62,023 bases of DNA from a virus, in IMG/VR virus record IMGVR_UViG_3300001687_001193. One strand, given 5' to 3'. The first letter of the stretch is position 1. Each line of letters begins with the position of its first letter. Shown here one piece after another: positions 10,347-48,221 of this stretch. A model generated the notes under the pieces. That model saw only the letters and a list, made by a program, of their open reading frames with translations. It searched no databases and was not told the origin of the DNA. The position numbers and the translations under genes are program-made.

Positions 10347-10564
10347 ACAACATATTCTTCAAAATAGGTGACATCGTGATACATAACACTCCGTTTTCTA
10401 CAAAATATGATCCAGGAGATGGCGTAGAAGGGGTTGTTATAGCTATGGTGTGGGGTGACATGCCTAAAGTTCGATGGAGCGACGGGAATGTAGAAACGTA
10501 TTGCCAGAGTGATTTAGAACTTATAGAAAGAAAGAGAGGCGACAGTGGCGAGGAAGAAAAGTAA
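10343..10564 (+). CDS. hypothetical small protein (KIGDIV-type N-terminus)
   Basis: N-terminal KIGDIVIH resembles the N-termini of the paralog set at 20940, 30076, 52328 and 58465. Confidence 0.35.
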   Translation: MNNIFFKIGDIVIHNTPFSTKYDPGDGVEGVVIAMVWGDMPKVRWSDGNVETYCQSDLELIERKRGDSGEEEK

Positions 10565-28217: not shown

Positions 28218-28356
28218 AAGAGTTGCGCGACGGAGATTTTGCCGATGATTGGAAAAATCCAGCAACTATAAAGAGAAGACTAAATAAAGAAATTAAAGAG
28301 TTGGAAAACTCTTGATATAGAGCTTGTTCAATTTTAAGAACAGGATGGAGGATACG

Positions 28357-29559
28357 ATGGCTGAGAAATTCGTAAGAGACAAGCCCCATGTCAATGTGGG
28401 GACGATTGGTCATATTGACCATGGAAAAACTACCCTGACAGCTGCCATCACGAAAGTTTTGGCACTGGAAGGTGGTGCCAAGTTTACATCGTTTGACGAG
28501 ATCGACAAGGCACCAGAAGAGAAAGAGCGTGGCATTACGATTGCTACGGCACATGTTGAGTATACGACAGAGAAAAGGCACTACGCACATGTTGACTGCC
28601 CAGGACACGCCGACTATATTAAGAATATGATTACAGGAGCGGCCCAGATGGACGGAGCAATTCTGGTTGTAAGTGCTCCAGATGGTCCAATGCCGCAGAC
28701 AAGAGAACACATCCTGTTGGCAAGACAGGTAGATGTACCAGCAATGGTAGTTTTCCTCAATAAAGTAGATATGGTAGACGAGGAAGACGTAGAGTTGATA
28801 GATTTGGTGGAATTAGAATTACAGGAGCTACTTACCAAGTATCAGTTTCCTGGGGAAGAAATTCCGATTATACGCGGATCTGCTTTACAGGCATTGGAAT
28901 CTAATAGCGACGACCTTGGTGCCCCTGAGTATCAGTGCATTAGGGAATTGGTGCGGGCGGTTGACGATTATATCCCAGAGCCAGAGCGAGATACAGACAA
29001 GGATTTTCTCCTTCCTGTCGAGAACGTATATACCATCGGTGGTAGAGGGACGGTCGTTACCGGAAAGGTAGAGCGTGGCAAGATCAAGGTGAACGATCCT
29101 GTAGAAATAGTGGGGATTAGAGAAACCAATCGCACTGTATGTACCGGTGTACAAATGTTCTATAAGGATATGGATGAAGGAATAGCGGGCGATAGTATCG
29201 GTGCTCTGCTGCGTGGAGTAAAAAGAGACGAGGTAGAGAGAGGAATGGTGTTGGCCGCTCCGGGCTCTATAACGCCTCATAGGAAATTTAAGGCAGAAGT
29301 TTACGTCTTGAGGAAAGAAGAAGGCGGGAGACACACTCCGTTCTTCAGCGGTTACAGGCCACAGTTCTATTGCAGGACCACTGATGTGATGGGTGAGATC
29401 AAACTCGACGAAGGCATCGAGATGGTAATGCCAGGCGACAATGTTAATGTCAACGTAGAACTGCACGTACCTATAGCCGCAGAAAAAGGATTGCATTTTG
29501 CGGTGAGAGAAGGAGGTAAAACCGTAGGTGCAGGAATGGTAACGGAGATTATCGAATGA
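28357..29559 (+). CDS. tuf: translation elongation factor Tu (EF-Tu) homolog
   Basis: GGAGGA RBS 4 nt before ATG at 28357. [32 protein letters not shown] is near-identical to bacterial EF-Tu, including the G1-G4 GTPase motifs (DCPGH, NKVD) and the C-terminal beta-barrel domains. Confidence 0.9.
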
Positions 29560-29640
29560 TAACAACAGGCAGGACTCTATGGGGAAGGTCAACGCGATGA
29601 ACATCGCGCATCTCCCATTTTCATAGCATTCTTGCCTTTT

Positions 29641-29725
29641 GGGCGATTAGCTCAGCTGGAAGAGCGCCAGTCTTACAAACTGGAGGCCGAATAGGTACAC
29701 GCAGGTTCAAATCCTGCATCGCCCA
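29641..29725 (+). tRNA. tRNA-Val(TAC)-like with a 17-nt variable-region insertion
   Basis: The body matches bacterial tRNA-Val(UAC): GGGCGATTAGCTCAGCTGGAAGAGCGCCAGTCTTACAAACTGG, then 17 nt AGGCCGAATAGGTACAC, then T-arm GCAGG-TTCAAAT-CCTGC and acceptor. Confidence 0.5.
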
Positions 29726-29890
29726 CAGACTCCCGGCCAGGAGTTTAGACGACTGCTAGGAATATTTATTACTAACTCTTACAATCTGGTAGATGCCCCT
29801 CCCAAGGGACAGGTGCGAACGGCAGAATTGATCACCTGCTTATGAGCACGAAGTCAGATCGGTTGTCGTTTTTATGGCTGGGCAGATTAT

Positions 29891-29963
29891 GGGGCTGTAG
29901 CTCAACTGGGAGAGCGCGGGCTTTGCAAGCCTGAGGTCGTCGGTTCGACTCCGACCAGCTCCA
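29891..29963 (+). tRNA. tRNA-Ala(TGC)
   Basis: Acceptor GGGGCTG/CAGCTCC with G3:U70, anticodon loop TTTGCAA, T-arm GTCGG-TTCGACT-CCGAC. Confidence 0.65.
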
Positions 29964-29966
29964 TAT

Positions 29967-30039
29967 GGGGTCATAGCTCAACTGGGAGAGCATTTGGCTG
30001 GCAGCCAAAAGGTTGGGGGTTCGAGCCCCCCTGACTCCA
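29967..30039 (+). tRNA. tRNA-Ala(GGC)
   Basis: Acceptor GGGGTCA/TGACTCC with G3:U70, anticodon stem TTTGG/CCAAA, loop CTGGCAG, T-arm GGGGG-TTCGAGC-CCCCC. Confidence 0.65.
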
Positions 30040-30075
30040 CTAAACGTCTAAGATCACTAGCGTAAGGAGGCCGAC

Positions 30076-30381
30076 ATGATTCCAAAGGTGGGAGACAGGG
30101 TGTATCTGAACAGCGAATTTGTCTCTGTATACTTAAAAACTCGCGGCGACTATTGGGTCAAGCCATTTATAGGTAAAGAGCTTGAAGTTGTACGCACTTC
30201 TTCTAACGTTGACATGCATGGACATAAGATAAACCCGATATTTGCACATCATTCTGTAAGATTTAAGATAGTTGGGACATCATTAAATGATCCTGTGACG
30301 CAATGCAATGTTGGCGTGGATTTGGGAGGCAGACAACACGGCATCTGCCATCCAGTTTTCGAAGTGATAAACTCAAATTAG
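30076..30381 (+). CDS. hypothetical protein (MIPKxGD paralog)
   Basis: AAGGAGG RBS; MIPKVGDRVYLNSEFV is paralogous to ORF 20940. Confidence 0.45.
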   Translation: MIPKVGDRVYLNSEFVSVYLKTRGDYWVKPFIGKELEVVRTSSNVDMHGHKINPIFAHHSVRFKIVGTSLNDPVTQCNVGVDLGGRQHGICHPVFEVINSN

Positions 30382-30489
30382 GATGTGTGGTATGCGAAAA
30401 ATTAGGAAAATTCTACTCTGCATATATGCAGTTGTACTGGCGTCAGCATCTATAAAGTATTAGCATTTCGTATTAAATAGGGGAATAAG

Positions 30490-30840
30490 ATGAAATTAAG
30501 ATCAGGATTCGTATCCAATAGCAGCACTTCTAGCTTCGTACTGGTTACTAGCGTCGAAAATCATGAGAGGATTTTACAGCAGTGTACAGAATACGAGAAA
30601 GATGTCATAAAAGCTATGACAATGACTAGGGAGCACAAGTTATTTGGCCGAGATATCGTATTTATGGAAGAATATAGCAGTAGTAGTTGGTGGACACTTG
30701 CCGAACTACCGTTCAATGAGAAATGGGAAGAGTTTGAAGACGAAAACCCACACGCTAGATCAGAGGCTTGGGACAAATACATAAGCCTAATAGGTGAGTC
30801 GCCAGATGAAGAAGTTTTTACCATAACTGTAGAAGGTTAA
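30490..30840 (+). CDS. small acidic protein with N-terminal GFVSNSSTSSF tag (SNSS-tag family member 2)
   Basis: Shared N-terminal motif; acidic C-terminus. Confidence 0.5.
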   Translation: MKLRSGFVSNSSTSSFVLVTSVENHERILQQCTEYEKDVIKAMTMTREHKLFGRDIVFMEEYSSSSWWTLAELPFNEKWEEFEDENPHARSEAWDKYISLIGESPDEEVFTITVEG

Positions 30841-31338
30841 ATGAAAGAACTTGACGTAGTATATGCAGAGCCCCGGAAGAGTCTTATATATGTCTCACCG
30901 GACACTCCCTCTGTTTTTCTTGCTGGTCCAACTCCTAGGAGTCCACATATCCCTTCATGGCGCCCGCTTGTCCTGCACCGTTTGTCGCAAATGGAGTTCG
31001 AGGGGTTAATATTTGTCCCAGAGACTCGCGAAGGCGGCGTACTTATGGAATACGAAGAACAGATCGAATGGGAAGAAACGTATTTAACGGATGCCAGTTG
31101 TATAATGTTTTGGATTCCTAGAGATTTAACACATTTGCCTGGGTTTACGACAAACATAGAGTTTGGTAGGTGGTATAACAGCAATAAAATTGTCGTAGGG
31201 TGGCTGCCTGGCAGCCCAAAGATGAGATATATAGAATATTATACAAGAAAGCTCAAGATACCTACGGCAGACACGCTTAATGAGACTGTAGAGCTAGCCG
31301 TAGAAATGGCTAATGAATACGTCAAAAGGGTAATCTAA
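30841..31338 (+). CDS. nucleoside 2-deoxyribosyltransferase-like protein (putative)
   Basis: VFLAGP...W...E pattern is reminiscent of the YFAGP/E core of deoxyribosyltransferase/Rcl-fold proteins; weak. Confidence 0.3.
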   Translation: MKELDVVYAEPRKSLIYVSPDTPSVFLAGPTPRSPHIPSWRPLVLHRLSQMEFEGLIFVPETREGGVLMEYEEQIEWEETYLTDASCIMFWIPRDLTHLPGFTTNIEFGRWYNSNKIVVGWLPGSPKMRYIEYYTRKLKIPTADTLNETVELAVEMANEYVKRVI

Positions 31339-31345
31339 GGAGTTA

Positions 31346-31573
31346 GTGATGACAGGTAAAAAGATGTTCGTAGACAATACGTGGACAGATGCGGCTCTTA
31401 CAATAGAGCGGGATGCTATATCCAAACTTAAGCCCATAATGGAGGTGTGGCTCGAATTAGGCTACGAACCACATGAAATTTCGCATATTTTTATGATTGC
31501 TGCGCAACAGGTTGAGCTTGAAGCTCGCATGAATTTGCGCATGAAGAAAAAAGAGGCTAATGATGCCCGATGA
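31346..31573 (+). CDS. hypothetical protein
   Basis: 75-aa ORF. Confidence 0.3.
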   Translation: MMTGKKMFVDNTWTDAALTIERDAISKLKPIMEVWLELGYEPHEISHIFMIAAQQVELEARMNLRMKKKEANDAR

Positions 31574-31865
31574 AAAACAGACATACGTCGGTGGATCTGG
31601 GAAAGTAAAAATTAAGAAATGGGAATTCATTGGCGTTTTGCCGCTTGGCATTACTTTGCTTCGCGGTTTGGTGTACGGGCACCCTAGATTTGAAGATGGA
31701 GAAGAAATCGTGACGTCTCCGATCGTTGAAATGGATTTGCTGTCACGTTCGGCGAAAACATACTCTGGTAGCCATTACCATTTGGAAGATCCTAATCCAG
31801 AATGGATTAAATGGTTAGAAGATAACAACCATACGGAATATTTAAATCAACTATTCCCCAACTAA
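31560..31865 (+). CDS. hypothetical protein
   Basis: 101-aa ORF. Confidence 0.3.
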   Translation: MMPDEKQTYVGGSGKVKIKKWEFIGVLPLGITLLRGLVYGHPRFEDGEEIVTSPIVEMDLLSRSAKTYSGSHYHLEDPNPEWIKWLEDNNHTEYLNQLFPN

Positions 31866-31878
31866 AGAGGGCAGAACC

Positions 31879-32673
31879 ATGTCTAAGGAAAAAACTGTCA
31901 GAGGAACATACGAATGGGCCTCATATAATGCAAATTGTGCTGTTGGATGTTCACATAACTGTGCCTACTGCTATGCTAGGACAAAAATCATACGCATGGG
32001 TAAAAGAACTCCAGATACGTGGAAAGACGAGTCATTAAATACCAAAGCGTTCACTAAAAAACTGGCTAAACGCAAGGGTACTACTATGTTTCCTACCCTG
32101 CACGATATTACGCCTTCCAATCTACACGGATGTGCTATATATTTAGAAAGATTGCTGTCGGCAGGGAATAAAGTATTAATAGTATCCAAGCCACACTACG
32201 AATGTATTGTGTTCTTATGCAACGCGTTTGAGATTTATAAAGAACAAATCTTATTTAGATTCACCATTGGCTCAGCAAACGATCATGTCCTGTGCCTTTG
32301 GGAGCCGGGCGCGCCAAGCTATTCGGAGAGAATTAATTCATTGGCGCACGCGTACAACTCTGGCTATCAAACCAGCGTTTCCTGCGAGCCGATGCTGGAC
32401 GACAACATACACAAAGTAATCGCGGATGCTGCGCCATTTGTATCGGATGCCATATGGCTGGGGAAGGCAAACAAGCTGATAGAAAGGCTGACGGTCAATG
32501 GGGCCTCCGATGACATCCTTAAGCATGCAATGAATCTTATACAAACTCAAAGTGACGATAAGATAAAGAAGTTGTATGAGAAATATAAAGGAAATAAGCA
32601 AATAAAGTGGAAGGAAAGCATTAAGGAGATAGTCGGGCTGGAAATCCCGACAAAGAAGGGATTGGACGTTTAA
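31879..32673 (+). CDS. phage Gp37/Gp68-family (DUF5131, radical-SAM-like) protein
   Basis: YEWASYNANCAVGCSHNCAYCYA parallels the family signature EW...WNP..GC...S.GC..CYA with a CxxxCxxC cluster. Confidence 0.45.
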   Translation: MSKEKTVRGTYEWASYNANCAVGCSHNCAYCYARTKIIRMGKRTPDTWKDESLNTKAFTKKLAKRKGTTMFPTLHDITPSNLHGCAIYLERLLSAGNKVLIVSKPHYECIVFLCNAFEIYKEQILFRFTIGSANDHVLCLWEPGAPSYSERINSLAHAYNSGYQTSVSCEPMLDDNIHKVIADAAPFVSDAIWLGKANKLIERLTVNGASDDILKHAMNLIQTQSDDKIKKLYEKYKGNKQIKWKESIKEIVGLEIPTKKGLDV

Positions 32674-32705
32674 TAAGGAGCCGAATTGAAGGAGAACAAA
32701 ACACC

Positions 32706-33023
32706 ATGAATGATTCTTACTGTCCGGATTGCGGCGGATATCTGTATTGGCACGCATCGGATTGTCCCAGCGCGGCCGATGTTCGGCATGTACTCGAGGG
32801 GATAATAAGGAAATATCGCGAGCGCGTTGCCGCCCTTGAAAAAGAAAACGAAGACCTTCGGAATTATCGCGATTGTTGTGACTGCGTTAATCATATTGAG
32901 CGTATTGCACGTCTTAAGATCCTTTTAACGGCAACAATTGGATATGTGGAACAATGCGGTGCGTTTGGCCTAGCAAATGAAATTCGCAATGTGTTTGCTG
33001 AGCTAACAGCATACGATTTATAA
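32706..33023 (+). CDS. hypothetical protein (CPDCGGYLYWH family, AT-normal copy)
   Basis: N-terminal MNDSYCPDCGGYLYWHASDCP is paralogous to ORF 40447. Confidence 0.45.
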   Translation: MNDSYCPDCGGYLYWHASDCPSAADVRHVLEGIIRKYRERVAALEKENEDLRNYRDCCDCVNHIERIARLKILLTATIGYVEQCGAFGLANEIRNVFAELTAYDL

Positions 33024-33040
33024 GCACTAGCGCAGTCGAA

Positions 33041-33247
33041 GTGGGGTTAAGATATATGACAGAACATAAAAAACCGCCGGTGTTGTATGTCAATATGCCG
33101 GATGAAATAAGAAGACGAGTTTATAATCATGAAGTATTATTGTCTTTTGGACGCGATGACGACGCCGTGATGTTTATATATTGGTGGAATCAGCGCGGCA
33201 AGAGGCTTTTCGATGAGTGGCGCGAATGCAATTTCGAAGAATTTTAA
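33041..33247 (+). CDS. hypothetical protein
   Basis: 68-aa ORF. Confidence 0.3.
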   Translation: MGLRYMTEHKKPPVLYVNMPDEIRRRVYNHEVLLSFGRDDDAVMFIYWWNQRGKRLFDEWRECNFEEF

Positions 33248-33259
33248 TATCAGAGTAGA

Positions 33260-33343
33260 AGGAGAGTACTGCTGAATGGTCGGCAACACGGCCCGAACCC
33301 GTGGGCGGTCTTCATGGCTGGGCGTTCGATTCGTCTACTCTCC
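33260..33343 (+). tRNA. tRNA-Ser(CGA)
   Basis: Class II fold: acceptor GGAGAGT/ACTCTCC, 3-bp D stem, anticodon stem CACGG/CCGTG, loop CCCGAAC, 16-nt variable arm, T-arm GGGCG-TTCGATT-CGTCT, G73. Confidence 0.55.
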
Positions 33344-33347
33344 GCTA

Positions 33348-33432
33348 TGGTAGGGCAAGCCGATGGGCGACGGCAGCTGGTTTGAACCCAGTCGAGCGTA
33401 ACTGCCTTGGGGGTTCGATTCCCTCCCCTACC
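33348..33432 (+). tRNA. tRNA-Ser(TGA)
   Basis: Class II fold: acceptor GGTAGGG/CCCTACC, anticodon stem GCTGG/CCAGT, loop TTTGAAC, 16-nt variable arm, T-arm GGGGG-TTCGATT-CCCTC, G73. Confidence 0.55.
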
Positions 33433-33493
33433 GCGAAGGGAGGGATCCCTTATATTTCGATTACTCTAACTGTCAGCAACAAGGAGGATAACT

Positions 33494-33682
33494 ATGGCTC
33501 AGATCACTTTTGCATACGAACCTATGGCTCAGATTGATTTTACGTGGGGTCTTAAAGAAAAATTAGACCGGGACCAAAGCATTATGAGAGATATTGGTGA
33601 AAATTACGTCGATTACGTAGACAGAGATACTGGTGAAATTATTGTTCGAGTGCCCAGATCGTCGTGGGAAAGGATAAAATAA
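33494..33682 (+). CDS. hypothetical protein
   Basis: AAGGAGGA RBS. Confidence 0.4.
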   Translation: MAQITFAYEPMAQIDFTWGLKEKLDRDQSIMRDIGENYVDYVDRDTGEIIVRVPRSSWERIK

Positions 33683-33683
33683 G

Positions 33684-34031
33684 ATGTGTTACGATGACTT
33701 AGGAAATATAGCAAGTGAATTGGATAATCTTAAATACACAGTAGAAGATTTAGAAACGGCGGTATACAACATACAGGAATTAGTAGGCGACGCATGCTGG
33801 TTTTTTCTGGTGGGCATAAAAGGTACTAGGAGGCACCACATAGCGATATTTGACGATGCTTTTAAACTTAGAGAATTTTTGTTTAGTTGTCAGCTTGCAA
33901 AACAGCCTAACTTGCACACCATAGCATACAAAAAGAAATCTCCAGTATACGGATTCGACAAATTGATAGTCGAACGCAGCTATGCGCCGCCCGACATTCC
34001 TTATAACCCAACTATTGAGGATTTTAGATGA
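33684..34031 (+). CDS. hypothetical protein
   Basis: 115-aa ORF; its 3' end lies in the 158-bp repeat. Confidence 0.4.
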   Translation: MCYDDLGNIASELDNLKYTVEDLETAVYNIQELVGDACWFFLVGIKGTRRHHIAIFDDAFKLREFLFSCQLAKQPNLHTIAYKKKSPVYGFDKLIVERSYAPPDIPYNPTIEDFR

Positions 34032-34040
34032 ATTTTAAAA
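33883..34040 (+). repeat. 158-bp direct repeat, copy 1 (about 96 percent identical to 34981-35138)
   Basis: Aligned by eye; about 6 mismatches. Confidence 0.7.
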
Positions 34041-34354
34041 CACATAACGACAAGGCAATTAACGCTGTTGGGACTAGTTATCAAGGTCGCGTTATAATAA
34101 ACTATTTCGCGCTTAAGAGGTTATTCGGCAAGCCACACGACGGTGATCAGTATAAAGCGGACGCGGAATGGGAGATAGAGTTTGAAGACGGCGTTGTAGC
34201 TACTATATATAATTATAAAAATGGTATTAGCTATTTAGGTAGAACGCACGGCATCCCAAAATCGAGGATTGTTGAATGGCACGTTGGAGGCCATACCAGG
34301 GAAGCATTTGAGAGGGTGAACGCGATAATTGCAGCGAACATGGGTGGGCTATAA
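34028..34354 (+). CDS. hypothetical protein
   Basis: 108-aa ORF. Confidence 0.4.
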   Translation: MNFKTHNDKAINAVGTSYQGRVIINYFALKRLFGKPHDGDQYKADAEWEIEFEDGVVATIYNYKNGISYLGRTHGIPKSRIVEWHVGGHTREAFERVNAIIAANMGGL

Positions 34355-34536
34355 TGAGCGCGATAATCTGGCTGATCGTGGCTGTAATAATAGCAACAAG
34401 ATTATTTATTTGGCCGCGCGTCAAATATATTAGTGGACCAAGCAATACTGTGCTCAAAACGCGCGGTAACAGGATAGTTAAAGTAATTCCATATCGAGAA
34501 GCAATAATAAAAAAGAAACACATAGGGTGGTTTTAA
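34354..34536 (+). CDS. small single-pass membrane protein
   Basis: N-terminal TM helix, then basic residues. Confidence 0.4.
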   Translation: MSAIIWLIVAVIIATRLFIWPRVKYISGPSNTVLKTRGNRIVKVIPYREAIIKKKHIGWF

Positions 34537-34549
34537 CCGGGAAAATAAA

Positions 34550-34897
34550 ATGAAAAAAATGGCCTTTATAGTAAGCCTCATTATATCTATAATAGTAGGC
34601 ACAATTATAGGACTGTCATTTGCAATAGATATAAGTTTTTCGGGCACATTCGAAACCGGCGCGATCTTCATGCTTTCTAGTGCAATTGTCGGATTCACAA
34701 CGTTCTCTATAATAAATGCCATAATGATCGTAGTGGCGGGAATCTATAGATATTTCACTATCGGTGAGTTTGATCACGACTATGTAGTATATGAAGAATT
34801 TGGTAAGGGTATGTCGTTAGCCTTTGGCACATTATGTCTGCTCATTATCGTTTGCTACACGATTGGACGTTTGATATCTACATTAACGGGAGGGTAA
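34550..34897 (+). CDS. membrane protein (3 predicted TM helices; holin-like size)
   Basis: Three hydrophobic stretches in 115 aa. Confidence 0.4.
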   Translation: MKKMAFIVSLIISIIVGTIIGLSFAIDISFSGTFETGAIFMLSSAIVGFTTFSIINAIMIVVAGIYRYFTIGEFDHDYVVYEEFGKGMSLAFGTLCLLIIVCYTIGRLISTLTGG

Positions 34898-34973
34898 ATA
34901 GGGACGGGTTTCCTAGCTGGCCTGCTAAGCCATGCGCGTCGAGAGGCGTCTAGTTCAAATCTAGTGCCCTCCG
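34889..34973 (+). tRNA. tRNA-Ser(GCT) (probable)
   Basis: Acceptor GGAGGGT/GCCCTCC, anticodon stem (C)TGGC/GCCA(T), loop CTGCTAA, 15-nt variable arm, T-arm TCTAG-TTCAAAT-CTAGT, G73; the D arm is irregular. Confidence 0.4.
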
Positions 34974-34980
34974 CTTTGTG

Positions 34981-35138
34981 TTAGTTGTCAACTTGCAAGA
35001 CAGCCTAACTTGCACACCATAGCATACAAAAAGAAGTCTCCAGTATATGGATTCGACAAATTGATAGTCGAACGCAGCTATGTGCCGCCCGACATTCCTT
35101 ATAACCCAACTATTGAGGATTTTAGATGAATTTTAAAA
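34981..35138 (+). repeat. 158-bp direct repeat, copy 2 (degenerate pseudo-copy of the 3' end of gene 33684-34031 plus the start of 34028)
   Basis: An in-frame stop appears in copy 2. Confidence 0.7.
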
Positions 35139-35219
35139 TCCGTGCCGGCTATGATTCCTGATAGACGGAAAATCTTCGATTCTAGAAGAGCCCCTAACCT
35201 TCATTGGAAAATTAAAATC

Positions 35220-35723
35220 ATGTACATCTACACAGACAAAACAACAGTATACAAGTCAGATATTGTGTCTTTTGTTGAATCTTTCTCTGAGACAGCAAAT
35301 GAAAAAATTATAAAAGAATGTATTAGAACACTAATGCGATGGTATGATTCGTTAGAAGCATCTATGGCCAGTTATCTTGTGGCAAGAGGTGTTAAGATAG
35401 TCTACATGTTAGGATCTTGTTTTGTTAGCATAAAGAGCGAACAAGAGCGAGAACTTGTAGAAAAAATCATGGTAGGCGGTGTGGAAATGATGCTAGGGCC
35501 TAAGAGTACCGAGATCACCTCATGTGAGCCTATAGTATTTTCTACGTCTGGATGTGGTCTCATGATCGGTATAGCTGCGCAACCATGGGTGGTTGAAACA
35601 TATCAATGGTTGATGGATAATAAAAGTAATTTACCCGAACGCGTATTTGAATCCCTAGAAGGACAGTTATTGGGATACGACTCTATTTCTATACAGAAGT
35701 TTGTTGACACTAGATGTGTCTAA
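35220..35723 (+). CDS. hypothetical protein (start uncertain)
   Basis: Internal ATG of ORF 35142, downstream of the repeat copy. Confidence 0.35.
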   Translation: MYIYTDKTTVYKSDIVSFVESFSETANEKIIKECIRTLMRWYDSLEASMASYLVARGVKIVYMLGSCFVSIKSEQERELVEKIMVGGVEMMLGPKSTEITSCEPIVFSTSGCGLMIGIAAQPWVVETYQWLMDNKSNLPERVFESLEGQLLGYDSISIQKFVDTRCV

Positions 35724-35750
35724 GAAAGCAGATATCGATACAATATATAA

Positions 35751-36230
35751 ATGTCAAACAGAACAACAACTTTTACGGACTATTGGACGGAAGACCTTAC
35801 CTACACGTACACCGGTACCACCGCAAATAATACCACTCCATCGCCAAGGTACTACCTTTATACAACCTGGTCTGATTCGCAGTCCGTTGGCAGAAATGCA
35901 GGACGCAGCACTGATCCGTTTGTCGTGGAGCCTAACCCATTTACTACAGAAGTTGACGAAGAACCCAGCGTAGAAGAGCGTCTTATAGAGTTTTATCAGT
36001 GGTTGAAAGAGGATGCTAGGGAAATTGAACTGGAAGACCCAGATGCTGCTAGATGCGTGGAGTCGGTTATTCGCGATATGAAGCGGGTTTTCTTAGAGTT
36101 GCTTGATGCCGAGGTGTTTTGGGAATCATATGAAAAAACTCGGCTCCCATGTGCTACACATGTAACAGATTACCAAAATCTCGTGACGTTCGGCGGTTCT
36201 GATGTTGAGCGTTTCAGAGAACATGGGTAA
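35751..36230 (+). CDS. hypothetical protein
   Basis: 159-aa ORF. Confidence 0.35.
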   Translation: MSNRTTTFTDYWTEDLTYTYTGTTANNTTPSPRYYLYTTWSDSQSVGRNAGRSTDPFVVEPNPFTTEVDEEPSVEERLIEFYQWLKEDAREIELEDPDAARCVESVIRDMKRVFLELLDAEVFWESYEKTRLPCATHVTDYQNLVTFGGSDVERFREHG

Positions 36231-36250
36231 CATTATATAGGTAATAAAAA

Positions 36251-36595
36251 ATGACAGTATACCAGCAACCTGGAATATATATAAATAATATATCTTATTC
36301 GTGGTGTCCTAAGGATACATACAAAGAGAATCCGCTTGAGGTAAAGCTTAAAAAATTTTACCAATCATTAATACAGAGAGCAGAAAAAATCAGAAAGAAA
36401 GACCCGAAGGCGATGGGCTCTATAGAGGCCATTATAGATAAGATTGAGGAAATGTTTCCAGAATTATCTCCGGAAGTAACAGAATGCGATGGTTCGTCTA
36501 GGAACTTGCCTCCGAGCCGCGTGGGCATCAGAGAGGATATAAATGAAAACGATAATTGCGATCGGCTTATTGACTTTGGTAACCTGTCTTACTAG
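36251..36595 (+). CDS. hypothetical protein
   Basis: 114-aa ORF. Confidence 0.35.
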   Translation: MTVYQQPGIYINNISYSWCPKDTYKENPLEVKLKKFYQSLIQRAEKIRKKDPKAMGSIEAIIDKIEEMFPELSPEVTECDGSSRNLPPSRVGIREDINENDNCDRLIDFGNLSY

Positions 36596-36926
36596 TAATG
36601 AAACGTTGGCTAGAGGGTGCAAAAATTCAAGCGAAGGATTTTATGCGTCGCAAATTGTTAGTAAGTTAGAAACTATACCCGTGTTGAAGTGGGAAATTGA
36701 CAATTTGACTGACGCTATTTTGCTACGTCGGCGCGGCGTGCTTATAGAAATTAGAAAGGATGGCAGCTTGTTATCAAGTTATCAGCCCATTACACTGCCT
36801 GCTATCACTGTGAAAAAAGCCAAGGAATTGTACCAAAGAGTTATATGTTCTAAACAGTCAAGAAATATGCAAATAATTATCAAGACCCTTAAGGTACTTG
36901 GTATTGATTGGAGGCGATGGCCCTAG
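36543..36926 (+). CDS. secreted protein (signal peptide)
   Basis: N-terminal MKTIIAIGLLTLVTCLTSNE hydrophobic signal. Confidence 0.4.
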   Translation: MKTIIAIGLLTLVTCLTSNETLARGCKNSSEGFYASQIVSKLETIPVLKWEIDNLTDAILLRRRGVLIEIRKDGSLLSSYQPITLPAITVKKAKELYQRVICSKQSRNMQIIIKTLKVLGIDWRRWP

Positions 36927-36995
36927 TTGGTCGGGGCAACCGGCTGGAACCCGGTGGGTTGAGAGGCTCCTAGAGTTCAATTCTCTACGCCTCCG
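36910..36995 (+). tRNA. tRNA-Ser(GGA)
   Basis: Class II fold: acceptor GGAGGCG/CGCCTCC, anticodon stem ACCGG/CCGGT, loop CTGGAAC, 15-nt variable arm, T-arm TAGAG-TTCAATT-CTCTA, G73. Confidence 0.55.
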
Positions 36996-37103
36996 CATGG
37001 AGAAGATTGATATATGACCGAGGCGAACAATGATGAAATTACTGAAGATAGTCAATAAGTTTCGTTGTTTTCTCAACAAGTTGGAACAGATAGGCAGGAA
37101 AAA

Positions 37104-37211
37104 ATGGGAAAATCTGATTCGGGACTAGACATTGGAGTCTTGCTATTTTGGGCTATTGTAGCTGGGATAATAATATTAGTATCTGGGCTAACCATATATG
37201 CGTACTGGTAA
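37104..37211 (+). CDS. small hydrophobic peptide (35 aa; not in the ORF track)
   Basis: AGGCAGGAAAAA then ATG; single TM helix. Confidence 0.35.
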   Translation: MGKSDSGLDIGVLLFWAIVAGIIILVSGLTIYAYW

Positions 37212-37226
37212 GGAGCCGGAACATAA

Positions 37227-37322
37227 ATGCCAATAGAATTTCCAAATGAAGCTATTATTCTGGGTGCTCTTGCCCTACTAATCATAATAGTTATGCTATC
37301 TGTGTCTGGTAAAAATAAATGA
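37227..37322 (+). CDS. small hydrophobic peptide (31 aa; not in the ORF track)
   Basis: AAGGAGCC RBS; single TM helix; ATGA overlap with the next gene. Confidence 0.35.
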   Translation: MPIEFPNEAIILGALALLIIIVMLSVSGKNK

Positions 37323-37726
37323 GAAAGAAATACAGAGAAGATTGCAGAAAAAGGCTAATCATTCCCGAGATATACCCGCTAACCGAAATAGTTTCTAGAG
37401 GCAATATATACTTCTATACTAAATCCGGGACGCCGATAGCAAAAAATTATGTAAGAGTGGTAATAGGTGATCGTGGGCCGTACATTGAATTTACTGAGAA
37501 GAATATGAATCATGATGCATTGCGCATACCTGATTCTCAAATGTGGCGCGTATCACATGGAGGCTGCTATTACATAGAGTTAAGGTCGACAGACGAGGCA
37601 TATGTTAAAGTGTACTTACAAAAACGGGCAGTAAAGTACGCTGATTATGTAGTAGGGTTTTACTATATTTCCCCATTTGAACTAAAATCGGATAAATATC
37701 CTATTTTAATAACGAAGGAGTCGTGA
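37319..37726 (+). CDS. hypothetical protein
   Basis: 135-aa ORF. Confidence 0.4.
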   Translation: MRKKYREDCRKRLIIPEIYPLTEIVSRGNIYFYTKSGTPIAKNYVRVVIGDRGPYIEFTEKNMNHDALRIPDSQMWRVSHGGCYYIELRSTDEAYVKVYLQKRAVKYADYVVGFYYISPFELKSDKYPILITKES

Positions 37727-38001
37727 TGCGACGTTTACTATTAGTGGCCATCAGTTTTGCATTTATTACTGGTTGTAGTGGGGCCAAACAAATGTATCTG
37801 GGTACTGCTATGCAAGTTTGTGGAGAGCATTGTACCGCTTTACACCCAGATACTACTATAATTGGAATCGCTGTTAATGTCACACCGGGCGGGATGGAAA
37901 ATGGCATTATAGACCAGTGTATCTGTACACTTAGTAATGGTGAAACTTCCACCATAGATAGAGTCAAGAGCGATAAACAACTTGTCGTAGAAGTTGAATG
38001 A
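37723..38001 (+). CDS. lipoprotein
   Basis: Signal peptide with lipobox FITGC. Confidence 0.5.
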   Translation: MMRRLLLVAISFAFITGCSGAKQMYLGTAMQVCGEHCTALHPDTTIIGIAVNVTPGGMENGIIDQCICTLSNGETSTIDRVKSDKQLVVEVE

Positions 38002-38005
38002 AATA

Positions 38006-38078
38006 GCGGGCGTAGTATAACGGTTTAGTACGTTACATTGCCGGTGTAGAGGTGGGAGTTCAATTCTCCCCGCCCGCA
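38006..38078 (+). tRNA. tRNA-Gly(GCC)
   Basis: Acceptor GCGGGCG/CGCCCGC, anticodon stem TTACA/TGTAG, loop TTGCCGG, T-arm GGGAG-TTCAATT-CTCCC. Confidence 0.65.
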
Positions 38079-38089
38079 CGGAGGAAACA

Positions 38090-38755
38090 ATGAGAATAGT
38101 TGCAGTTTCTGATACGCATGCAGATCATAGGGACATTCCTTACATTCCAGACGGAGATGTGTTTATACACGCTGGCGATTTCTTGAATTTTGGCTACGAA
38201 ACAGATTATCTCGGCGGCGATATACTTGGCGATTTTTATAAGTGGATAGAACATTTACCACACAAGTATAAGATTTTGATCGCTGGTAATCACGATTACT
38301 TTCTAGATAAAGAACCAAAAAGAATACAAGAACTTCCATGTACGTATTTACAGGATGCCTCTATCGAAATAGAAGGTCTAAAGATATATGGAAGCCCATG
38401 GGTCCCACACGTTATAGGTATTGGTTCTTTTAGTGTTATCGAAGGTAGCGATATGATTGAAAAATGGTCACTGATGCCCAATGACGTGGACATATTAGTC
38501 ACCCATGCCGCTCCATTTGGCTATGGGGACACGCCGTATAGAAAAGGAGGCGTCGTGAAAAGGTCTGGTAGTGAAAAAATACAGCATGTGGGCTGCGTTG
38601 ACTTAATGAATAAAGTGAAAGAAGTAAAGCCGAGAATACATATCTTCGGTCACATACACGCCAGTAGTGGTTTCGACGAAGAAACTGACGGCACACGATT
38701 CATCAACGTCTCTTATGACAAACATAGAAAAGAAATTGTCGTTATAGATATATAA
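38090..38755 (+). CDS. calcineurin-like metallophosphoesterase
   Basis: VSDTHADH ... HAGDF ... AGNHD ... GHIH are the ordered MPP motifs. Confidence 0.65.
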   Translation: MRIVAVSDTHADHRDIPYIPDGDVFIHAGDFLNFGYETDYLGGDILGDFYKWIEHLPHKYKILIAGNHDYFLDKEPKRIQELPCTYLQDASIEIEGLKIYGSPWVPHVIGIGSFSVIEGSDMIEKWSLMPNDVDILVTHAAPFGYGDTPYRKGGVVKRSGSEKIQHVGCVDLMNKVKEVKPRIHIFGHIHASSGFDEETDGTRFINVSYDKHRKEIVVIDI

Positions 38756-38766
38756 GGAGTTTTAGA

Positions 38767-39222
38767 ATGTCTTATGCATGGAAAAACGAGCCACATATGC
38801 CAAGTTATCTACATAGTTTAGAGGCGCATAGACTTTCTTATTTAAAAGCAATTGTAGAAAACCATAGCCGACCTTTTAATCTCAGCCCTGGAACAACGCT
38901 GGAAAACTTAATAGAATTAGACCTATGGCCGTGTACCAGGTGTATGTCGGATGGCAAGATATTCGACCCAGCAGACTATGATATAATCGAAGGGAACAAA
39001 TTAGCCAGGCATATAGCGTGTCCCCTATGCGGTGGTCGCGGTCATATAAGCAAGGAATTGTTCCAAAAAATACATGACAAGGCAATCAGGCCGTATCGAC
39101 GGACGATCAAGAAACACATTGAAATAGCCCTAGAAGTCGAAAAGATATTAGAAAAGTTGACAGAAGAAGAGATAAAGATACTAGAGAAGTGGTATGGTTA
39201 TGTAGAGCCATCTCGTCGTTGA
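38767..39222 (+). CDS. hypothetical protein with CPLCGGRGH motif
   Basis: AAGGAG RBS. Confidence 0.4.
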   Translation: MSYAWKNEPHMPSYLHSLEAHRLSYLKAIVENHSRPFNLSPGTTLENLIELDLWPCTRCMSDGKIFDPADYDIIEGNKLARHIACPLCGGRGHISKELFQKIHDKAIRPYRRTIKKHIEIALEVEKILEKLTEEEIKILEKWYGYVEPSRR

Positions 39223-39224
39223 AG

Positions 39225-39308
39225 GCCCCTGTGTCGTAATTGGTAGGCGAGCCGGTCTCAAAAATCGGTGCTCATAGGAGCGTGCTGGTTCGAATCCAGC
39301 CAGGGGCA
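39225..39308 (+). tRNA. tRNA-Leu(CAA)
   Basis: Class II fold: acceptor GCCCCTG/CAGGGGC, 3-bp D stem, anticodon stem CCGGT/ATCGG, loop CTCAAAA, 15-nt variable arm, T-arm GCTGG-TTCGAAT-CCAGC, A73. Confidence 0.6.
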
Positions 39309-39322
39309 CATGGAGGAAGAAC

Positions 39323-39604
39323 ATGAAATGTGATAGGTGCGGATGTCAGTTCAGTATATGTGATAAGTGCGGCATGTCTGTATTGCTCGGCTCGTCAAGT
39401 GCTGAGCATTATATGAAGTGTGCTTGGGGAAATCCGGTATTTGCGTGTAAGGATGGCGGCTATCTGCCGTGGGAAGCACCAGGCGGAGAATGCCCACAGT
39501 GTTGGAACAAAGAAAATGGCCGTGGCAAGCCGGTTCTTGCAGATTCGCCATTAGGCCGCAGAATAAAAGAGGTTACGTGCCGTGAAAAAGGAGAGATAAA
39601 ATGA
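39323..39604 (+). CDS. hypothetical Cys-rich protein
   Basis: Multiple CxxC motifs; GGAGGAAG RBS. Confidence 0.4.
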   Translation: MKCDRCGCQFSICDKCGMSVLLGSSSAEHYMKCAWGNPVFACKDGGYLPWEAPGGECPQCWNKENGRGKPVLADSPLGRRIKEVTCREKGEIK

Positions 39605-39795
39605 TAGCGCTCAGTTTAACCGCTCTTTGCCTTGGACTTGTGTTTATAATTGGCGGCACAATAATATCTAGAGTTGTCGATGACGAACTGGGACTTGGGA
39701 TGACTACAGTTGGTACAATTATGTCTATTTTTTCAGTGGTATTTGTGATAGGAACACTTTTATACAGATTCTTTACAAGTTTGGGTGTAAGTTAA
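39601..39795 (+). CDS. small membrane protein
   Basis: Two TM helices. Confidence 0.4.
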   Translation: MIALSLTALCLGLVFIIGGTIISRVVDDELGLGMTTVGTIMSIFSVVFVIGTLLYRFFTSLGVS

Positions 39796-40446: not shown

Positions 40447-40770
40447 ATGAGCGACAGCAACTGTCCGGATTGTGGCGGGTATCTGTACTGGCACAAAACG
40501 GACTGCCCGAGAACAACAGAGAAACTTCGCGCCCGCATCGCCGACCTAGAGGCCGAGGTGGAGCGGCTGCGAAGCTACATCAGGGGCGTACAAGAGGCGC
40601 AGGCAGTGTCTGAATCGCTGGCCAGTGAGCGCAGCATCGAGGTGGAGCGGCTGCGGGGGTTGCTGCGGAAGGCGTTGAAGGCGTTTGAGGGGTGTATCTG
40701 CGGTGACGAAACGCGAAAGTGCGCAGACATTGAGCGCCGCATCGAAGCCGCGCTGAAGGAGGGGCAGTGA
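40447..40770 (+). CDS. hypothetical protein (CPDCGGYLYWH family, GC-rich copy)
   Basis: N-terminus paralogous to ORF 32706; about 60 percent GC versus about 42 percent background; internal 17-bp direct repeat GAGGTGGAGCGGCTGCG. Confidence 0.45.
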   Translation: MSDSNCPDCGGYLYWHKTDCPRTTEKLRARIADLEAEVERLRSYIRGVQEAQAVSESLASERSIEVERLRGLLRKALKAFEGCICGDETRKCADIERRIEAALKEGQ

Positions 40771-42429: not shown

Positions 42430-45201
42430 ATGTTGGACAAGATACGCAAAGCCATAGAAAATAGGCTCAATAAGAAATATATCTCCAACCCAACATCTGA
42501 AGAAAACCTTTGGTCTTACATTGAAAAGACAGAGCGCGAGCTAGAAATCGCCGAAGGCGAACTTAGGGCTCTTAGAGAAAAAATAAAAGCGTTAGCCGAT
42601 CGAACTGGATTCCGTGGCATATTTCTAGAGTTTGTGGGGCCTCGCAGAGCGTTGGTGGCAATAGGTCCGCTTAAGGAAGAAGTGCTTATCACCCCGAATG
42701 TAGAAGAATCGCGGCTAAAAAAGGGCTGCGAAGTCTTAATTACCCTCGACGATAATGGTAAAATGTTGTCTGAGGATCGTGGACGCAGCGCATATGGCGG
42801 CAGAGTAGGCAAAATACATATGGTGTTAGACTCGGAACGAGTATTGATCGAGGAAGCTGGTCATATCGCTATGTTTATTCTAGCCGAAGGAGTGGAATGT
42901 CAAACTGGCGACGAGGTACGATACGATCCAATTTCTCAAGTAGTATTCGAAGTGATTGGAGAAAAGAGAGAATCGGCCTTCGCTTTGGCGGAACAACCTA
43001 AAACTACTTTCGACGATGTAAAAGGCTTGTGCGAAGAAAAAGAGTTTCTCAAAGAAAAGATAATATATCCTATAATTTACAGCGATAAGTTTGAAAAATA
43101 TGGGATTAAGCCCGCGAGAGGGATCTTGTTTCATGGTCCTCCTGGTTGTGGTAAAGCCCAACCCCTAGATAGTTTGGTGTTGACTCCCAACGGTTATGTA
43201 AAAATGGGAGACATTTTGCCTGGAAGTTTTGTCTCTACTCCAGACGGCAATAGTGCCAAAGTTCTGGAAACGTTTCCTCAAGGTGAAATAGAAATTTATA
43301 AAGTAAATTTTAGCGATGGAACATCAGCGGAGTGTTGTGAAAATCATTTATGGAAAATACGAAATAAATATGACATCGCAATGAAGCGACACGGCAGAGT
43401 AGTAAAACTTAAAGATATTATGTATAAGGTAAAACTTCCTTCAGGACGCAGGAAATATTCCATTCCGATGACAAAGCCGGTTAAATTTGTTAGACACAGC
43501 GTTCCACTTGATCCATATTTACTCGGGTGTTTACTTGGTGACGGTTCTTTTAGTAGCAAAAAGGTGGGTTTTACTACAATGGATCGTGAGATTATTGACA
43601 CTCTAACTCCGATTATACGTCGCCTGGGTTGTAAATTTACGAGACATGATAGATATAATTACGATATCGTAGAAATATTAAAACAGAGCGGCCCTGTTGG
43701 CCGCGCAGTAGAATCTATCACTGATAGCGGTGAAGTTATTACTTACGATTGTATCTCGTCTGCGGTGGCAGCTGGGTTTAGTAAACACGGAATATATAAA
43801 ACTTGTTCTGGGCGACAGCACACGCATGGGGGCAGAAGGTGGAGATTTTTACAGAAATTGGCTGCAGCACACCACCCAATAAAAAATGCGTTGCACCAAC
43901 TTTGCCTGTTTGGGACAAGATCTTCCGAGAAATTTGTGCCTCACGTCTATAAGATTAACTCTAGACAAATTAGACTTTCTCTATTAAGAGGATTAATGGA
44001 TACGGATGGGTGTGTCGACAAAAAGGGCATGACTGTATTTTTCTCCAGTACATCATATCAGTTAATAATGGATGTTAAATTTCTCGTGGAATCACTTGGT
44101 GGGAAAGCTAAAGTGGGTCGCCCACGCAAATCTAAGTATCGAAAGAACACTGGCGAAGTCGTAGAAACCGGCAATGTATCCCATAATCTTTTCATTTCCA
44201 TGCCACCCGACATAAACCCATTTCTGGTATCCCGAAAAAGGCTGCGCGTATGCCCCAAAACCAAGTATCCACCGACGAGATATATAGAAGAAATATGTTA
44301 TGTGGGCAAAAAGAAAGCGCAGTGCATATTAATAGACCATCCAGATCATTTATATATAACAAATGATTTCATTGTTACACATAACACATATCTAGGAGAA
44401 GCGGTATTCAACGAGTCCATGAAAATCAGGGGTGGAAAAACTGCCGGCAAGGGTTTTTTCCTGGTGAATGGACCAGAAATATTATCAAAATGGGCCGGCA
44501 ACACTGAACTAGCCATAAGAGAGGTGTTCGAGGCGGCACGACGAGAAGCTAATACCTCCGGATTTCCATCGGTTATATTCTGGGACGAAGTAGACAGCGT
44601 GGCTGGGAGGAGAAAAGATGTTGATACATTTACTCCAGAAAAGACTGTTGTTCCCACATTGTTGTCCGAAATACACGGAATTAACAACACGAACAATGTT
44701 ATTTTTATCGGAGCGACCAATATGCCTAATTTAATTGACCCAGCCTTAATGCGCCCTGGGAGACTTGGAGACGCGATTATAGAAATCCCGAGGCCCGAAA
44801 GTAATGCCGCAATGGACATTTTAGATAAGGAGTTCAACCGTGAGAGTCTCCCAGCAGCCCTTACAGCTCTTTTAAAAGAAGGCCTGACTCAACGGATAGT
44901 TGACCATTGTTATGCGAACACCAAACCTCTTGCATATGCGAGCAGGAAAAGTGGTGCTAAGCAACCACTAATGAGACAGGAATTGGTGAGCGGTGCACTA
45001 TTCGCCCAGATTGGGGAGGATTTGGTGCGTAGAGCCTGCATGGCAGAGATAGATGAATCTAGGCCACCCACAATTGAAGATGCTATAGACATGGTAGATA
45101 ACATATTATTGACACAGATTGGAGTGTTGGATGCTGGCGTGAAAAGTGGTTTTACTATCGATACTTCTGACTACGTTGTCGATGTATCATTAGATGGGTA
45201 A
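42430..45201 (+). CDS. AAA+ ATPase of the proteasome-activating (PAN/ARC/Rpt/Cdc48-like) type, interrupted by an intein in the Walker A motif
   Basis: N-terminal coiled coil. Walker A GPPGCGK|...|T is split by the insert, then Walker B VIFWDEVD and the SRH ATNMPNLIDPALMRPGRLGDAIIEIPRP follow. The extein is about 513 aa. Confidence 0.75.
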   Translation: MLDKIRKAIENRLNKKYISNPTSEENLWSYIEKTERELEIAEGELRALREKIKALADRTGFRGIFLEFVGPRRALVAIGPLKEEVLITPNVEESRLKKGCEVLITLDDNGKMLSEDRGRSAYGGRVGKIHMVLDSERVLIEEAGHIAMFILAEGVECQTGDEVRYDPISQVVFEVIGEKRESAFALAEQPKTTFDDVKGLCEEKEFLKEKIIYPIIYSDKFEKYGIKPARGILFHGPPGCGKAQPLDSLVLTPNGYVKMGDILPGSFVSTPDGNSAKVLETFPQGEIEIYKVNFSDGTSAECCENHLWKIRNKYDIAMKRHGRVVKLKDIMYKVKLPSGRRKYSIPMTKPVKFVRHSVPLDPYLLGCLLGDGSFSSKKVGFTTMDREIIDTLTPIIRRLGCKFTRHDRYNYDIVEILKQSGPVGRAVESITDSGEVITYDCISSAVAAGFSKHGIYKTCSGRQHTHGGRRWRFLQKLAAAHHPIKNALHQLCLFGTRSSEKFVPHVYKINSRQIRLSLLRGLMDTDGCVDKKGMTVFFSSTSYQLIMDVKFLVESLGGKAKVGRPRKSKYRKNTGEVVETGNVSHNLFISMPPDINPFLVSRKRLRVCPKTKYPPTRYIEEICYVGKKKAQCILIDHPDHLYITNDFIVTHNTYLGEAVFNESMKIRGGKTAGKGFFLVNGPEILSKWAGNTELAIREVFEAARREANTSGFPSVIFWDEVDSVAGRRKDVDTFTPEKTVVPTLLSEIHGINNTNNVIFIGATNMPNLIDPALMRPGRLGDAIIEIPRPESNAAMDILDKEFNRESLPAALTALLKEGLTQRIVDHCYANTKPLAYASRKSGAKQPLMRQELVSGALFAQIGEDLVRRACMAEIDESRPPTIEDAIDMVDNILLTQIGVLDAGVKSGFTIDTSDYVVDVSLDG
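43156..44385 (+). other. intein (410 aa) with LAGLIDADG homing-endonuclease domain, inserted between K242 and T653 of the P-loop
   Basis: Begins AQPLDSLVLTPNGYVKMGDI (block-A-like), contains LLGCLLGDGSF and LLRGLMDTDGCV (two LAGLIDADG motifs), ends IVTHN followed by Thr +1. Joining the exteins restores GPPGCGKT. Confidence 0.7.
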
Positions 45202-47786: not shown

Positions 47787-48221
47787 ATGAAGATTGGGAC
47801 GAAGGCAAGGCCGGCGATTAGCAGGTTTTGCCTGGAAGTTGGTTGGCCGTATCCAAAAATTATCGCGACCGGTGACAACCTTCGCGTGTATACTTGGCCT
47901 GACGAGCCATTTTTCTTAGAAATTGGGTGCAATGGGGCTCGGAAATTATATGCTCTAATTGTTGAAAATTTCGACGACCTTGACGACAATATACTCCCAG
48001 ACTGTTTCACTGACTGCGACAATCAATGGGGATTTACTCACATTTTGTTTAGTTCCTTAATGCGTTGGGAGAGTGCAATAAGAAGCTGGGATCGAGATGG
48101 GAGATTGATGGGCGAAGAGTTTAGTTCCTTAATGCGTTGGGAGAGTCCGCCCGAAACTGTAGAATTGCTTCCAAAGACCGTTAGGCAGACAGAGACCCCA
48201 GTGACTAGTCAAACTGGGTAA
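47787..48221 (+). CDS. hypothetical protein containing an in-frame 28-bp tandem-spaced duplication
   Basis: FSSLMRWES is encoded twice, 72 nt apart. Confidence 0.4.
   Translation: MKIGTKARPAISRFCLEVGWPYPKIIATGDNLRVYTWPDEPFFLEIGCNGARKLYALIVENFDDLDDNILPDCFTDCDNQWGFTHILFSSLMRWESAIRSWDRDGRLMGEEFSSLMRWESPPETVELLPKTVRQTETPVTSQTG
48047..48146 (+). repeat. two perfect 28-bp direct repeats (48047-48074 and 48119-48146) inside gene 47787-48221
   Basis: GTTTAGTTCCTTAATGCGTTGGGAGAGT appears twice. Confidence 0.7.

Follow-up and report, generated by a model that had tools for sequence, protein, structure and literature searches.

What does a long direct repeat signify when it brackets a transfer RNA (tRNA) gene and a few small genes in the tRNA array of a very large phage? 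The question is posed by a 62,023-nucleotide stretch of viral DNA, IMG/VR record IMGVR_UViG_3300001687_001193 (the window, at its full length), in which two nearly identical segments of 158 nucleotides (nt) surround a tRNA-Ser(GCU) gene. All features of the locus are on the plus strand, in the order u62, A, B, C, D, tRNA-Ser(GCU), the second copy of the repeat (copy 2), an 81-nt stretch, and E; the first copy (copy 1) lies across the junction between A and B (Table 1). A preliminary description made from the sequence alone considered that the repeats might mark a membrane-protein module inserted by recombination. The comparison with related phages points to a different origin: copy 2 is probably (a probability of about 0.7) a non-functional relic of an illegitimate partial duplication, produced amid the turnover of small ORFan genes between the tRNA anchors of a very large phage.

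Two copies of one coding fragment

The segments 33883-34040 and 34981-35138 are identical at 153 of their 158 positions (97%), without insertions or deletions and with a spacing of 1098, as obtained with a repeat finder, MAFFT, and a script; both the length and the identity of about 96% first estimated for the pair are thereby borne out. The five mismatches (33893 G/A, 33901 A/G, 33938 A/G, 33950 C/T, and 33985 C/T) are all transitions, and the longest identical run between the copies measures 55 nt. Self-blastn of the window widens the match to 33878-34040 against 34975-35138, with one 1-nt gap and an E-value of 4e-72, and returns no further repeat longer than 35 nt in the 62 kb, the repeat being present in two copies only. 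Given this E-value, and the fact that no other repeat of more than 35 nt exists in the window, chance is excluded as the source of the similarity.

The two copies differ in what they encode. Copy 1 is functional coding sequence, as had been proposed, since it forms the live 3′ end of A and the start of B. The stop of A and the start of B overlap, and the first 13 nt of B (ATGAATTTTAAAA) are present in both copies. Copy 2 retains 49 codons of A and the TGA stop without any shift of the frame; three of its changes are synonymous and two are replacements (K to R and A to V). Its right flank reads TCCGTGCC. It is devoid of the first 66 codons of A, its frame is closed upstream by an in-frame TAG at 34962, inside the tRNA, and the sole start-like codon of the A frame is a TTG at 35010 that is not preceded by a Shine-Dalgarno (SD) sequence. 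The earlier view of copy 2 as a dead copy is thus retained, whereas the frameshift or premature stop attributed to it is not, as the fragment is in frame, truncated, and startless. High identity to a complete parent gene, a truncated and startless reading frame, and absence from the orthologous site of the closest relative (see below) characterize copy 2 as a dispersed partial gene duplication. Consequently, the stretch at 35010-35129, which resembles an open reading frame (ORF), should not be annotated as a gene.

Short contigs from other assemblies, retrieved by exact protein sequence, bear on the possibility of an assembly artefact. One of them (L001, ENA ERZ27275805) corresponds to window positions 33520-34129 and spans copy 1 with both of its flanks, and another (L005, JGI 3300001855) corresponds to 34121-38779 and spans copy 2 with both of its flanks. 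The Logan unitigs L089 (29906-33931) and L002 (34011-35029), from SRR6207736, each end exactly 30 nt past the second copy-specific nucleotide difference, as a graph built with k=31 does where two distinct paths merge. All four sequences are 100% identical to the window. With four independent metagenome contigs covering both copies and their junctions, an assembly artefact is ruled out.

Table 1. Features of the repeat locus, in window coordinates (nt, nucleotides; aa, amino acids; TM, transmembrane; L086, closest relative found).
Feature	Coordinates	Strand	Description
u62	33494-33682	+	Small ORFan; conserved left neighbour of the variable segment; homolog at L086 4023-4208 (64% aa identity, tblastx)
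A	33684-34031	+	115 aa; parent of both repeat copies; absent at this locus in L086
Repeat copy 1 (original)	33883-34040	+	Last 49 codons and TGA stop of A, then first 13 nt of B
B	34028-34354	+	108 aa, soluble by hydropathy; absent at this locus in L086
C	34354-34536	+	60 aa, one N-terminal TM segment; ancestral here; full-length homolog at L086 4201-4386
D	34550-34897	+	115 aa, 3-4 TM segments; ancestral here; homolog at L086 4401-4757
tRNA-Ser(GCU)	34889-34973	+	Class II, atypical D arm; 9-nt overlap with the end of D; anchor of the locus, ancestral here
Repeat copy 2 (secondary)	34981-35138	+	A relic truncated at its 5′ end, followed by 13 nt of B; likeness reaches left to 34975 with a 1-nt gap
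Relic B start in copy 2	35126-35161	+	SD GAGGA-N6-ATG; 11-codon ORF MNFKIRAGYDS, then stop; overlaps candidate E start ATG 35151
Stretch between copy 2 and conserved core of E	35139-35219	+	81 nt, no source identified
E	35220-35723	+	167 aa from ATG 35220; ORF open from GTG 35142; conserved right neighbour

Old and new components of the locus

Which of these components are ancestral can be read from related phages. The closest relative found is a 10.5-kb Logan contig (L086), which holds an 81%-identical homolog of the radical-SAM protein encoded at 31879-32673 and is collinear, gene by gene, with window 29191-39654. Between its radical-SAM and Metallophos genes, this contig presents tRNA-Ser(tga) followed by the homologs of u62, C, D, tRNA-Ser(GCU), and E; A, B, and copy 2 are all absent from this locus. 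In this arrangement, the ATG of the C homolog overlaps the stop of the u62 homolog, and the ATG of E is located 2 nt past the conserved tRNA trailer GCTT. Two outgroups, L087 and L088, whose radical-SAM proteins are 68% and 66% identical, exhibit the order tRNA-Ser, 110-150 nt, tRNA-Ser(GCU), and a gene resembling F (the gene that follows E in the window), and hold none of u62 and A-E. The gene order of the closest relative, together with the tRNA at the same place in both outgroups, indicates that the two repeat copies appeared after C, D, and the tRNA were already in place. The tRNAs are thus anchors of long standing, C and D predate the split between the window and its closest relative, and the lineage-specific novelties are A plus B (33684-34354) and copy 2.

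Both novel genes have relatives at other positions. A homolog of B (65% amino acid identity) is encoded at 1053-1418 of L086, 3 kb upstream of the locus, between the equivalents of window positions 30369 and 30556. A homolog of A (P0002, 52% amino acid identity) is encoded on L003, another contig from the same sample, which is collinear with window 373-7353. The slots that these homologs occupy were also observed from the side of the window. That of the 121-residue B homolog corresponds to window 30370-30490, which holds only a 23-codon hydrophobic ORF, and is a replaceable accessory position. As for L003, two conserved genes that are direct neighbours in the window (6730/6731) are parted there, exactly at their boundary (positions 6955-7750 of L003), by three extra small genes of 70, 89, and 105 residues, of which the 105-residue one is the A homolog.

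Wider searches returned no other relatives of the locus. Neither megablast of 32500-37000 nor tblastn of A against INPHARED found any, nor did IMG/VR scans with A, E, and the A-family alignment. A metagenome scan with the radical-SAM protein yielded 80 loci, all of them at most 56% identical and none with A-E. Besides the locus itself, one of the outgroups (L087) holds two tRNA-His(gtg) genes (2690-2777 and 6002-6073) about 3.2 kb apart with a 729-residue gene between them, which may be a further case of duplication or insertion next to a tRNA anchor.

This comparison bears directly on the idea of an inserted membrane-protein cassette consisting of B, C, D, and the tRNA, in which the repeats would be a duplicated target or recombination scars. 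The geometry is the one expected of such a cassette, with direct repeats around about 940 bp that hold small proteins and a tRNA. However, the closest relative keeps the synteny of C, D, and the tRNA and yet carries neither A nor a copy of the repeat, and the tRNA is kept at this position in L087 and L088. Furthermore, the N-terminus of B runs uninterrupted through the right border of copy 1, neither terminal inverted repeats nor a domain of an integrase, transposase, or homing endonuclease is found, and the repeats include no tRNA sequence. Since C, D, and the tRNA are ancestral while A, B, and copy 2 are new, the segment between the repeats is not an inserted cassette; this explanation retains next to no probability, and the recombinational insertion that the repeats had been thought to mark is contradicted by the presence of C, D, and the tRNA in a relative that has neither copy.

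The direction of copying is equally clear. The homology of B with the protein of the closest relative passes the repeat border only at copy 1, where MNFK is followed across the border by THNDK, as compared to MQFY THNDK in the relative. Copy 2 holds the start of B, and hence it was copied from the A-B junction. As the homology of B is unbroken across the right border of copy 1, copy 1 and B are original, and copy 2 is secondary.

Origin and possible activity of copy 2

How a fragment of the A-B junction came to lie beside the tRNA can be proposed with less certainty. According to the favoured explanation, the unrelated accessory genes A and B would have come to lie between u62 and C in this lineage. 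Later, a piece of 158-164 nt across their junction would have been duplicated into the short spacer that separates tRNA-Ser(GCU) from E, about 1.1 kb further downstream. This would have happened either in one illegitimate copying step in which the template was switched twice or through a comparable patch repair of a break next to the tRNA, and copy 2 would have picked up five transitions since. A single copying event that returns to its original position would explain why both ends of the insertion are in one short spacer. At the left junction, the tRNA trailer GCTT followed by TGTGTTAG is set against the copy-1 context TTTTTGT-TTAG, with a microhomology of 2-5 nt (TT/TTTGT). On the right, the repeat ends in TTTTAAAA and the relatives show GCTTAA after the tRNA, so a microhomology of AA/AAAA is possible. 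Had the patch been made in one step with microhomologies of TT and AAAA, the ancestral tRNA-E spacer would have read GCTTAAAATCCGTGCC. Template switching or patch repair is the most likely mechanism, held at slightly under even odds when taken by itself, and at odds clearly in its favour if the general reading of copy 2 as a relic of partial duplication is granted.

Several points weigh against this explanation. The microhomology on the right and the single-event model are hypothetical, since they depend on the ancestral tRNA-E spacer of this lineage. The 81 nt at 35139-35219 are unmatched, and two template switches do not predict them unless they are the N-terminal extension of E itself. The three synonymous and two conservative differences between the copies would also fit two live genes under selection, a pattern that, with n=5 and an estimated p of about 0.1, is not significant, five substitutions being too few for dN/dS. 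Finally, a single close relative was compared, and the order of events rests on one outgroup plus two distant ones.

Regarding the 81-nt stretch, neither blastn-short nor tblastx matches it to other parts of the window or to any of the loci fetched, and its pairwise alignment to the closest relative is ambiguous. It may be an N-terminal extension of E, the start of which is uncertain (35142, 35151, or 35220).

Tandem duplications are frequent in phage genomes, and copy 2 could be the remainder of one. In this alternative, a unit of 1,098 bp (33883-34980) would have been duplicated in tandem, and an illegitimate deletion of the second B (from its nt 14), C, D, and the tRNA would have left a stub of 158 nt. 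The left border of copy 2 does abut the tRNA trailer, where the tandem junction would fall, and the same AAAA stretch could be the junction of the deletion. Nevertheless, two events are needed, the right end of the deletion must match the right end of the duplicated unit within a few bases, and there is no remnant of the second B, C, D, or tRNA, with the 81 nt unmatched in the window. This course of events is considered unlikely.

The differences between the copies and the orphan stretch that follows copy 2 would be accommodated by an eroded second insertion, in which a full A-B module, from the same phage or from a co-infecting relative, would have entered between tRNA-Ser(GCU) and E and been cut by two deletions, the 81 nt being its remnant. 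A and B are demonstrably mobile among loci of related phages, and the three synonymous and two conservative changes in an intact frame fit a divergence that took place while both copies were coding. At least three events are required, though, the 81 nt are unlike B, the longer C-terminus of the B homolog in the closest relative, or anything else, and the adjacency of A and B is known only in this lineage; we therefore regard this origin as quite improbable.

The partial duplication favoured here has parallels among known systems. According to the model of Hendrix and Hatfull, gene remnants in mosaic phage genomes reportedly derive from illegitimate recombination at gene boundaries. Like such remnants, A-B fits precisely into the boundary between two neighbouring genes and preserves the start/stop overlaps, and a truncated gene piece lies at another junction with a microhomology of only 2-5 nt. 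Unlike the foreign leftovers of that model, the fragment described here is an intragenomic copy that shares 97% identity with a live gene at a distance of 1.1 kb.

On the other hand, the proximity to a tRNA recalls att-type islands, where the direct repeats duplicate the 3′ terminus of a tRNA and are accompanied by an integrase. Copy 2 starts 8 nt past the 3′ end of the tRNA, or 2 nt if the gapped extension is counted. In contrast to those islands, the repeats hold no tRNA sequence, the other copy is located inside a protein gene, and no integrase is encoded nearby. Three types of mobile element were considered and rejected. For an integrase-mediated island, the repeat begins after the tRNA trailer, copy 1 is inside A, and there is no integrase domain. 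In the case of a transposon or insertion sequence with target-site duplication, the repeat is 158 nt long, its borders carry no inverted repeats, and A-E match no transposase domain in Pfam or PHROG. As to a homing-endonuclease cassette, A, B, C, and D yield no endonuclease match in Pfam or PHROG at E <= 0.1.

The hyperplastic regions of T4-type phages are a further term of comparison. There (Arbiol et al. 2010, PMC2839356; Comeau et al. 2014, PMC4122927), recombination takes place between promoter-terminator motifs termed PeSLs, which can form mini-circles. The present locus resembles those regions in that the presence and position of ORFans vary between close relatives while the flanking core is collinear, and in that nearby direct repeats could loop out the intervening DNA. 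It fits the general pattern of hyperplasticity in large phages, where illegitimate or short-homology recombination moves small ORFans about among conserved anchors and now and then leaves a gene fragment behind. PeSLs, however, are described as a short promoter plus a stem-loop and as many per genome, whereas a single coding fragment of 158 nt is found here in two copies. A PeSL-type cassette, with a sigma-70-like early promoter and a terminator stem-loop, was rejected, as the repeat has no match on its plus strand and only two copies in 62 kb. Promoter and terminator scans of the repeat gave counts at the level of shuffled sequences, with none on its plus strand, and the repeat folds no better than shuffles (z-scores of -0.9 and -1.5).

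Could the repeat pair nevertheless be active? If copy 1 and copy 2 recombined, 1,098 bp with B, C, D, and tRNA-Ser(GCU) would be lost or released as a circle, and an intact hybrid A would be left beside E. The repeats are thus a plausible substrate for deletion or duplication, as was initially suggested; no deletion product, pre-insertion state, or circle junction is seen among the contigs retrieved with the exact u62, A, B, C, and E proteins. There is a slender chance that the pair is not inert, and that it regularly releases a 1.1-kb circle with tRNA-Ser(GCU) and three small genes, or that copy 2 gives the ribosome-binding site (RBS) and start of B to E. If this were true, the circle would be a vehicle moving accessory genes between huge phages.

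As an explanation of the locus, a co-opted element of this sort, where copy 2 drives E by translational coupling through the RBS and ATG of B or the repeat pair releases circles for gene transfer like the PeSL mini-circles, is slimmer still in its prospects. Copy 2 does retain GAGGA-N6-ATG, the end of the relic ORF (35161) overlaps a candidate start of E (35151), and recombination between nearby repeats makes encapsidated mini-circles in the phages phi1 and RB49 (PMC2839356). However, the conserved core of E and the JGI gene start are at 35220, E in the closest relative needs no such leader, the contigs retrieved contain no variant or circle junction, and the repeat is a coding fragment without a promoter-terminator motif. 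Translational coupling of the relic start to E is therefore conceivable but unsupported.

The tRNA, its neighbours, and the huge-phage setting

The tRNA-Ser(GCU) between the repeats, already recognized in the preliminary description, escapes both default ARAGORN and Rfam RF00005 at E <= 1. Under relaxed settings (-ps80), ARAGORN reports an 86-nt tRNA-like gene at 34889-34974, and its mitochondrial mode (-mt) calls Ser(gct). The minimum-energy fold of 34889-34973 is a class-II cloverleaf with a long variable arm and the anticodon loop CUGCUAA. Orthologs are located at the same place in L086, L087, and L088, that of L088 being called tRNA-Ser(gct) by default ARAGORN, and in the four-sequence alignment, compensatory changes on both sides keep the pairing at 11 of the 26 tRNA pairs. 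The cloverleaf and this covariation uphold the earlier call, and 34889-34973 is accepted, on its predicted fold and conservation, as a real, although non-canonical, tRNA-Ser(GCU). With it, the serine isoacceptors of the window comprise CGA, UGA, GGA, and GCU.

The protein genes of the locus are largely orphans. No Pfam or PHROG match is obtained for A-E (for A-D, at E <= 0.1). The A family is very small, with two clusters in a word-indexed search and 12 cluster representatives among 1.84 billion proteins, and its members hold about 100-120 residues. An AlphaFold2 (AF2) model of A (predicted local distance difference test score, pLDDT, of 79) comprises an N-terminal helix, a beta-hairpin, a second helix, and a short strand, and has no PDB or BFVD match at E <= 0.001. 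The B family is wider, with seven IMG/VR loci at 46-51% identity and weak matches in Flavobacterium phages; none of the seven IMG/VR homologs adjoins A or tRNAs. Of the three small membrane proteins initially proposed, C and D are indeed hydrophobic, whereas B, with a maximum 19-residue Kyte-Doolittle score of 0.64, has no TM segment. The homolog of D in the closest relative is positional, with a weak sequence likeness (30% amino acid identity, tblastx) and a shared RYF.(I/V)GEFD motif. A holin, spanin, or superinfection-exclusion module, which had been offered as a function, finds no backing, as A-E match no family and B is soluble; no lysis enzyme is present among the annotated or Pfam-matched genes on the contigs covering about 29-39 kb.

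E (P0003) is the 167-residue JGI gene call, and its homolog at 4850-5362 of the closest relative is 47% identical in amino acids. Downstream, F (35751-36230) and G (36251-36595) share with E a common (F/T)YQ(W/S)L motif (span 35142-36595), and the three may form a locally expanded paralog family. F-like genes also follow tRNA-Ser(GCU) in the distant relatives (L087 11582-12079 and L088 3400-3939).

The exact sequence of gene A is found on the source contig, of 460,921 bp. The window contains 24 tRNAs called by ARAGORN, or 25 with the missed tRNA-Ser(GCU), and has a GC content of 42% with a uniform skew. A genome of more than 200 kb, many tRNAs, and translation genes such as EF-Tu are features shared with the huge phages of Al-Shayeb et al. 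2020 (PMC7162821), and the source of the window is a huge phage of this kind, for which INPHARED and IMG/VR yielded no close relative. That work describes gene content, and the turnover of ORFans between tRNA anchors reported here is a local detail of such genomes.

Several other features of the window were recorded. EF-Tu (28324-29559), a Ro60/TROVE protein (15196-16926), a DnaJ-domain protein kinase (10545-11564), and an IMPDH/GMP-reductase-type enzyme (53756-54847) are typical huge-phage content. The gene at 42430-45201 encodes a 923-residue AAA-family ATPase split by a LAGLIDADG domain (residues about 504-573), a sequence arrangement that suggests an intein. Two paralogous small genes (32706-33023 and 40447-40770) encode a coiled coil preceded by the N-terminal zinc-ribbon-like motif CPDCGGYLYWH; their DNA matches over 35 nt at 91%, and they belong to a small-gene family scattered through the tRNA array. 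A perfect direct repeat of 28 nt, beginning with TTTAGTTCCTTAATGCGTTGGGAGAGT, occurs at 48047-48074 and 48119-48146, 72 nt apart, upstream of tRNA-Glu.

Illegitimate recombination has long been known to leave scars of this kind in phage genomes, and copy 2 is a recent one. For annotation, the locus teaches that a real tRNA-Ser(GCU) can escape standard tools. The scar also marks a 1.1-kb segment, including this tRNA, that would be predisposed to deletion. More broadly, the comparison offers a clean, dated illustration of tRNA-array evolution in huge phages, with the tRNAs and a few enzymes remaining fixed while the ORFans A and B appear in three slots across two related phages.

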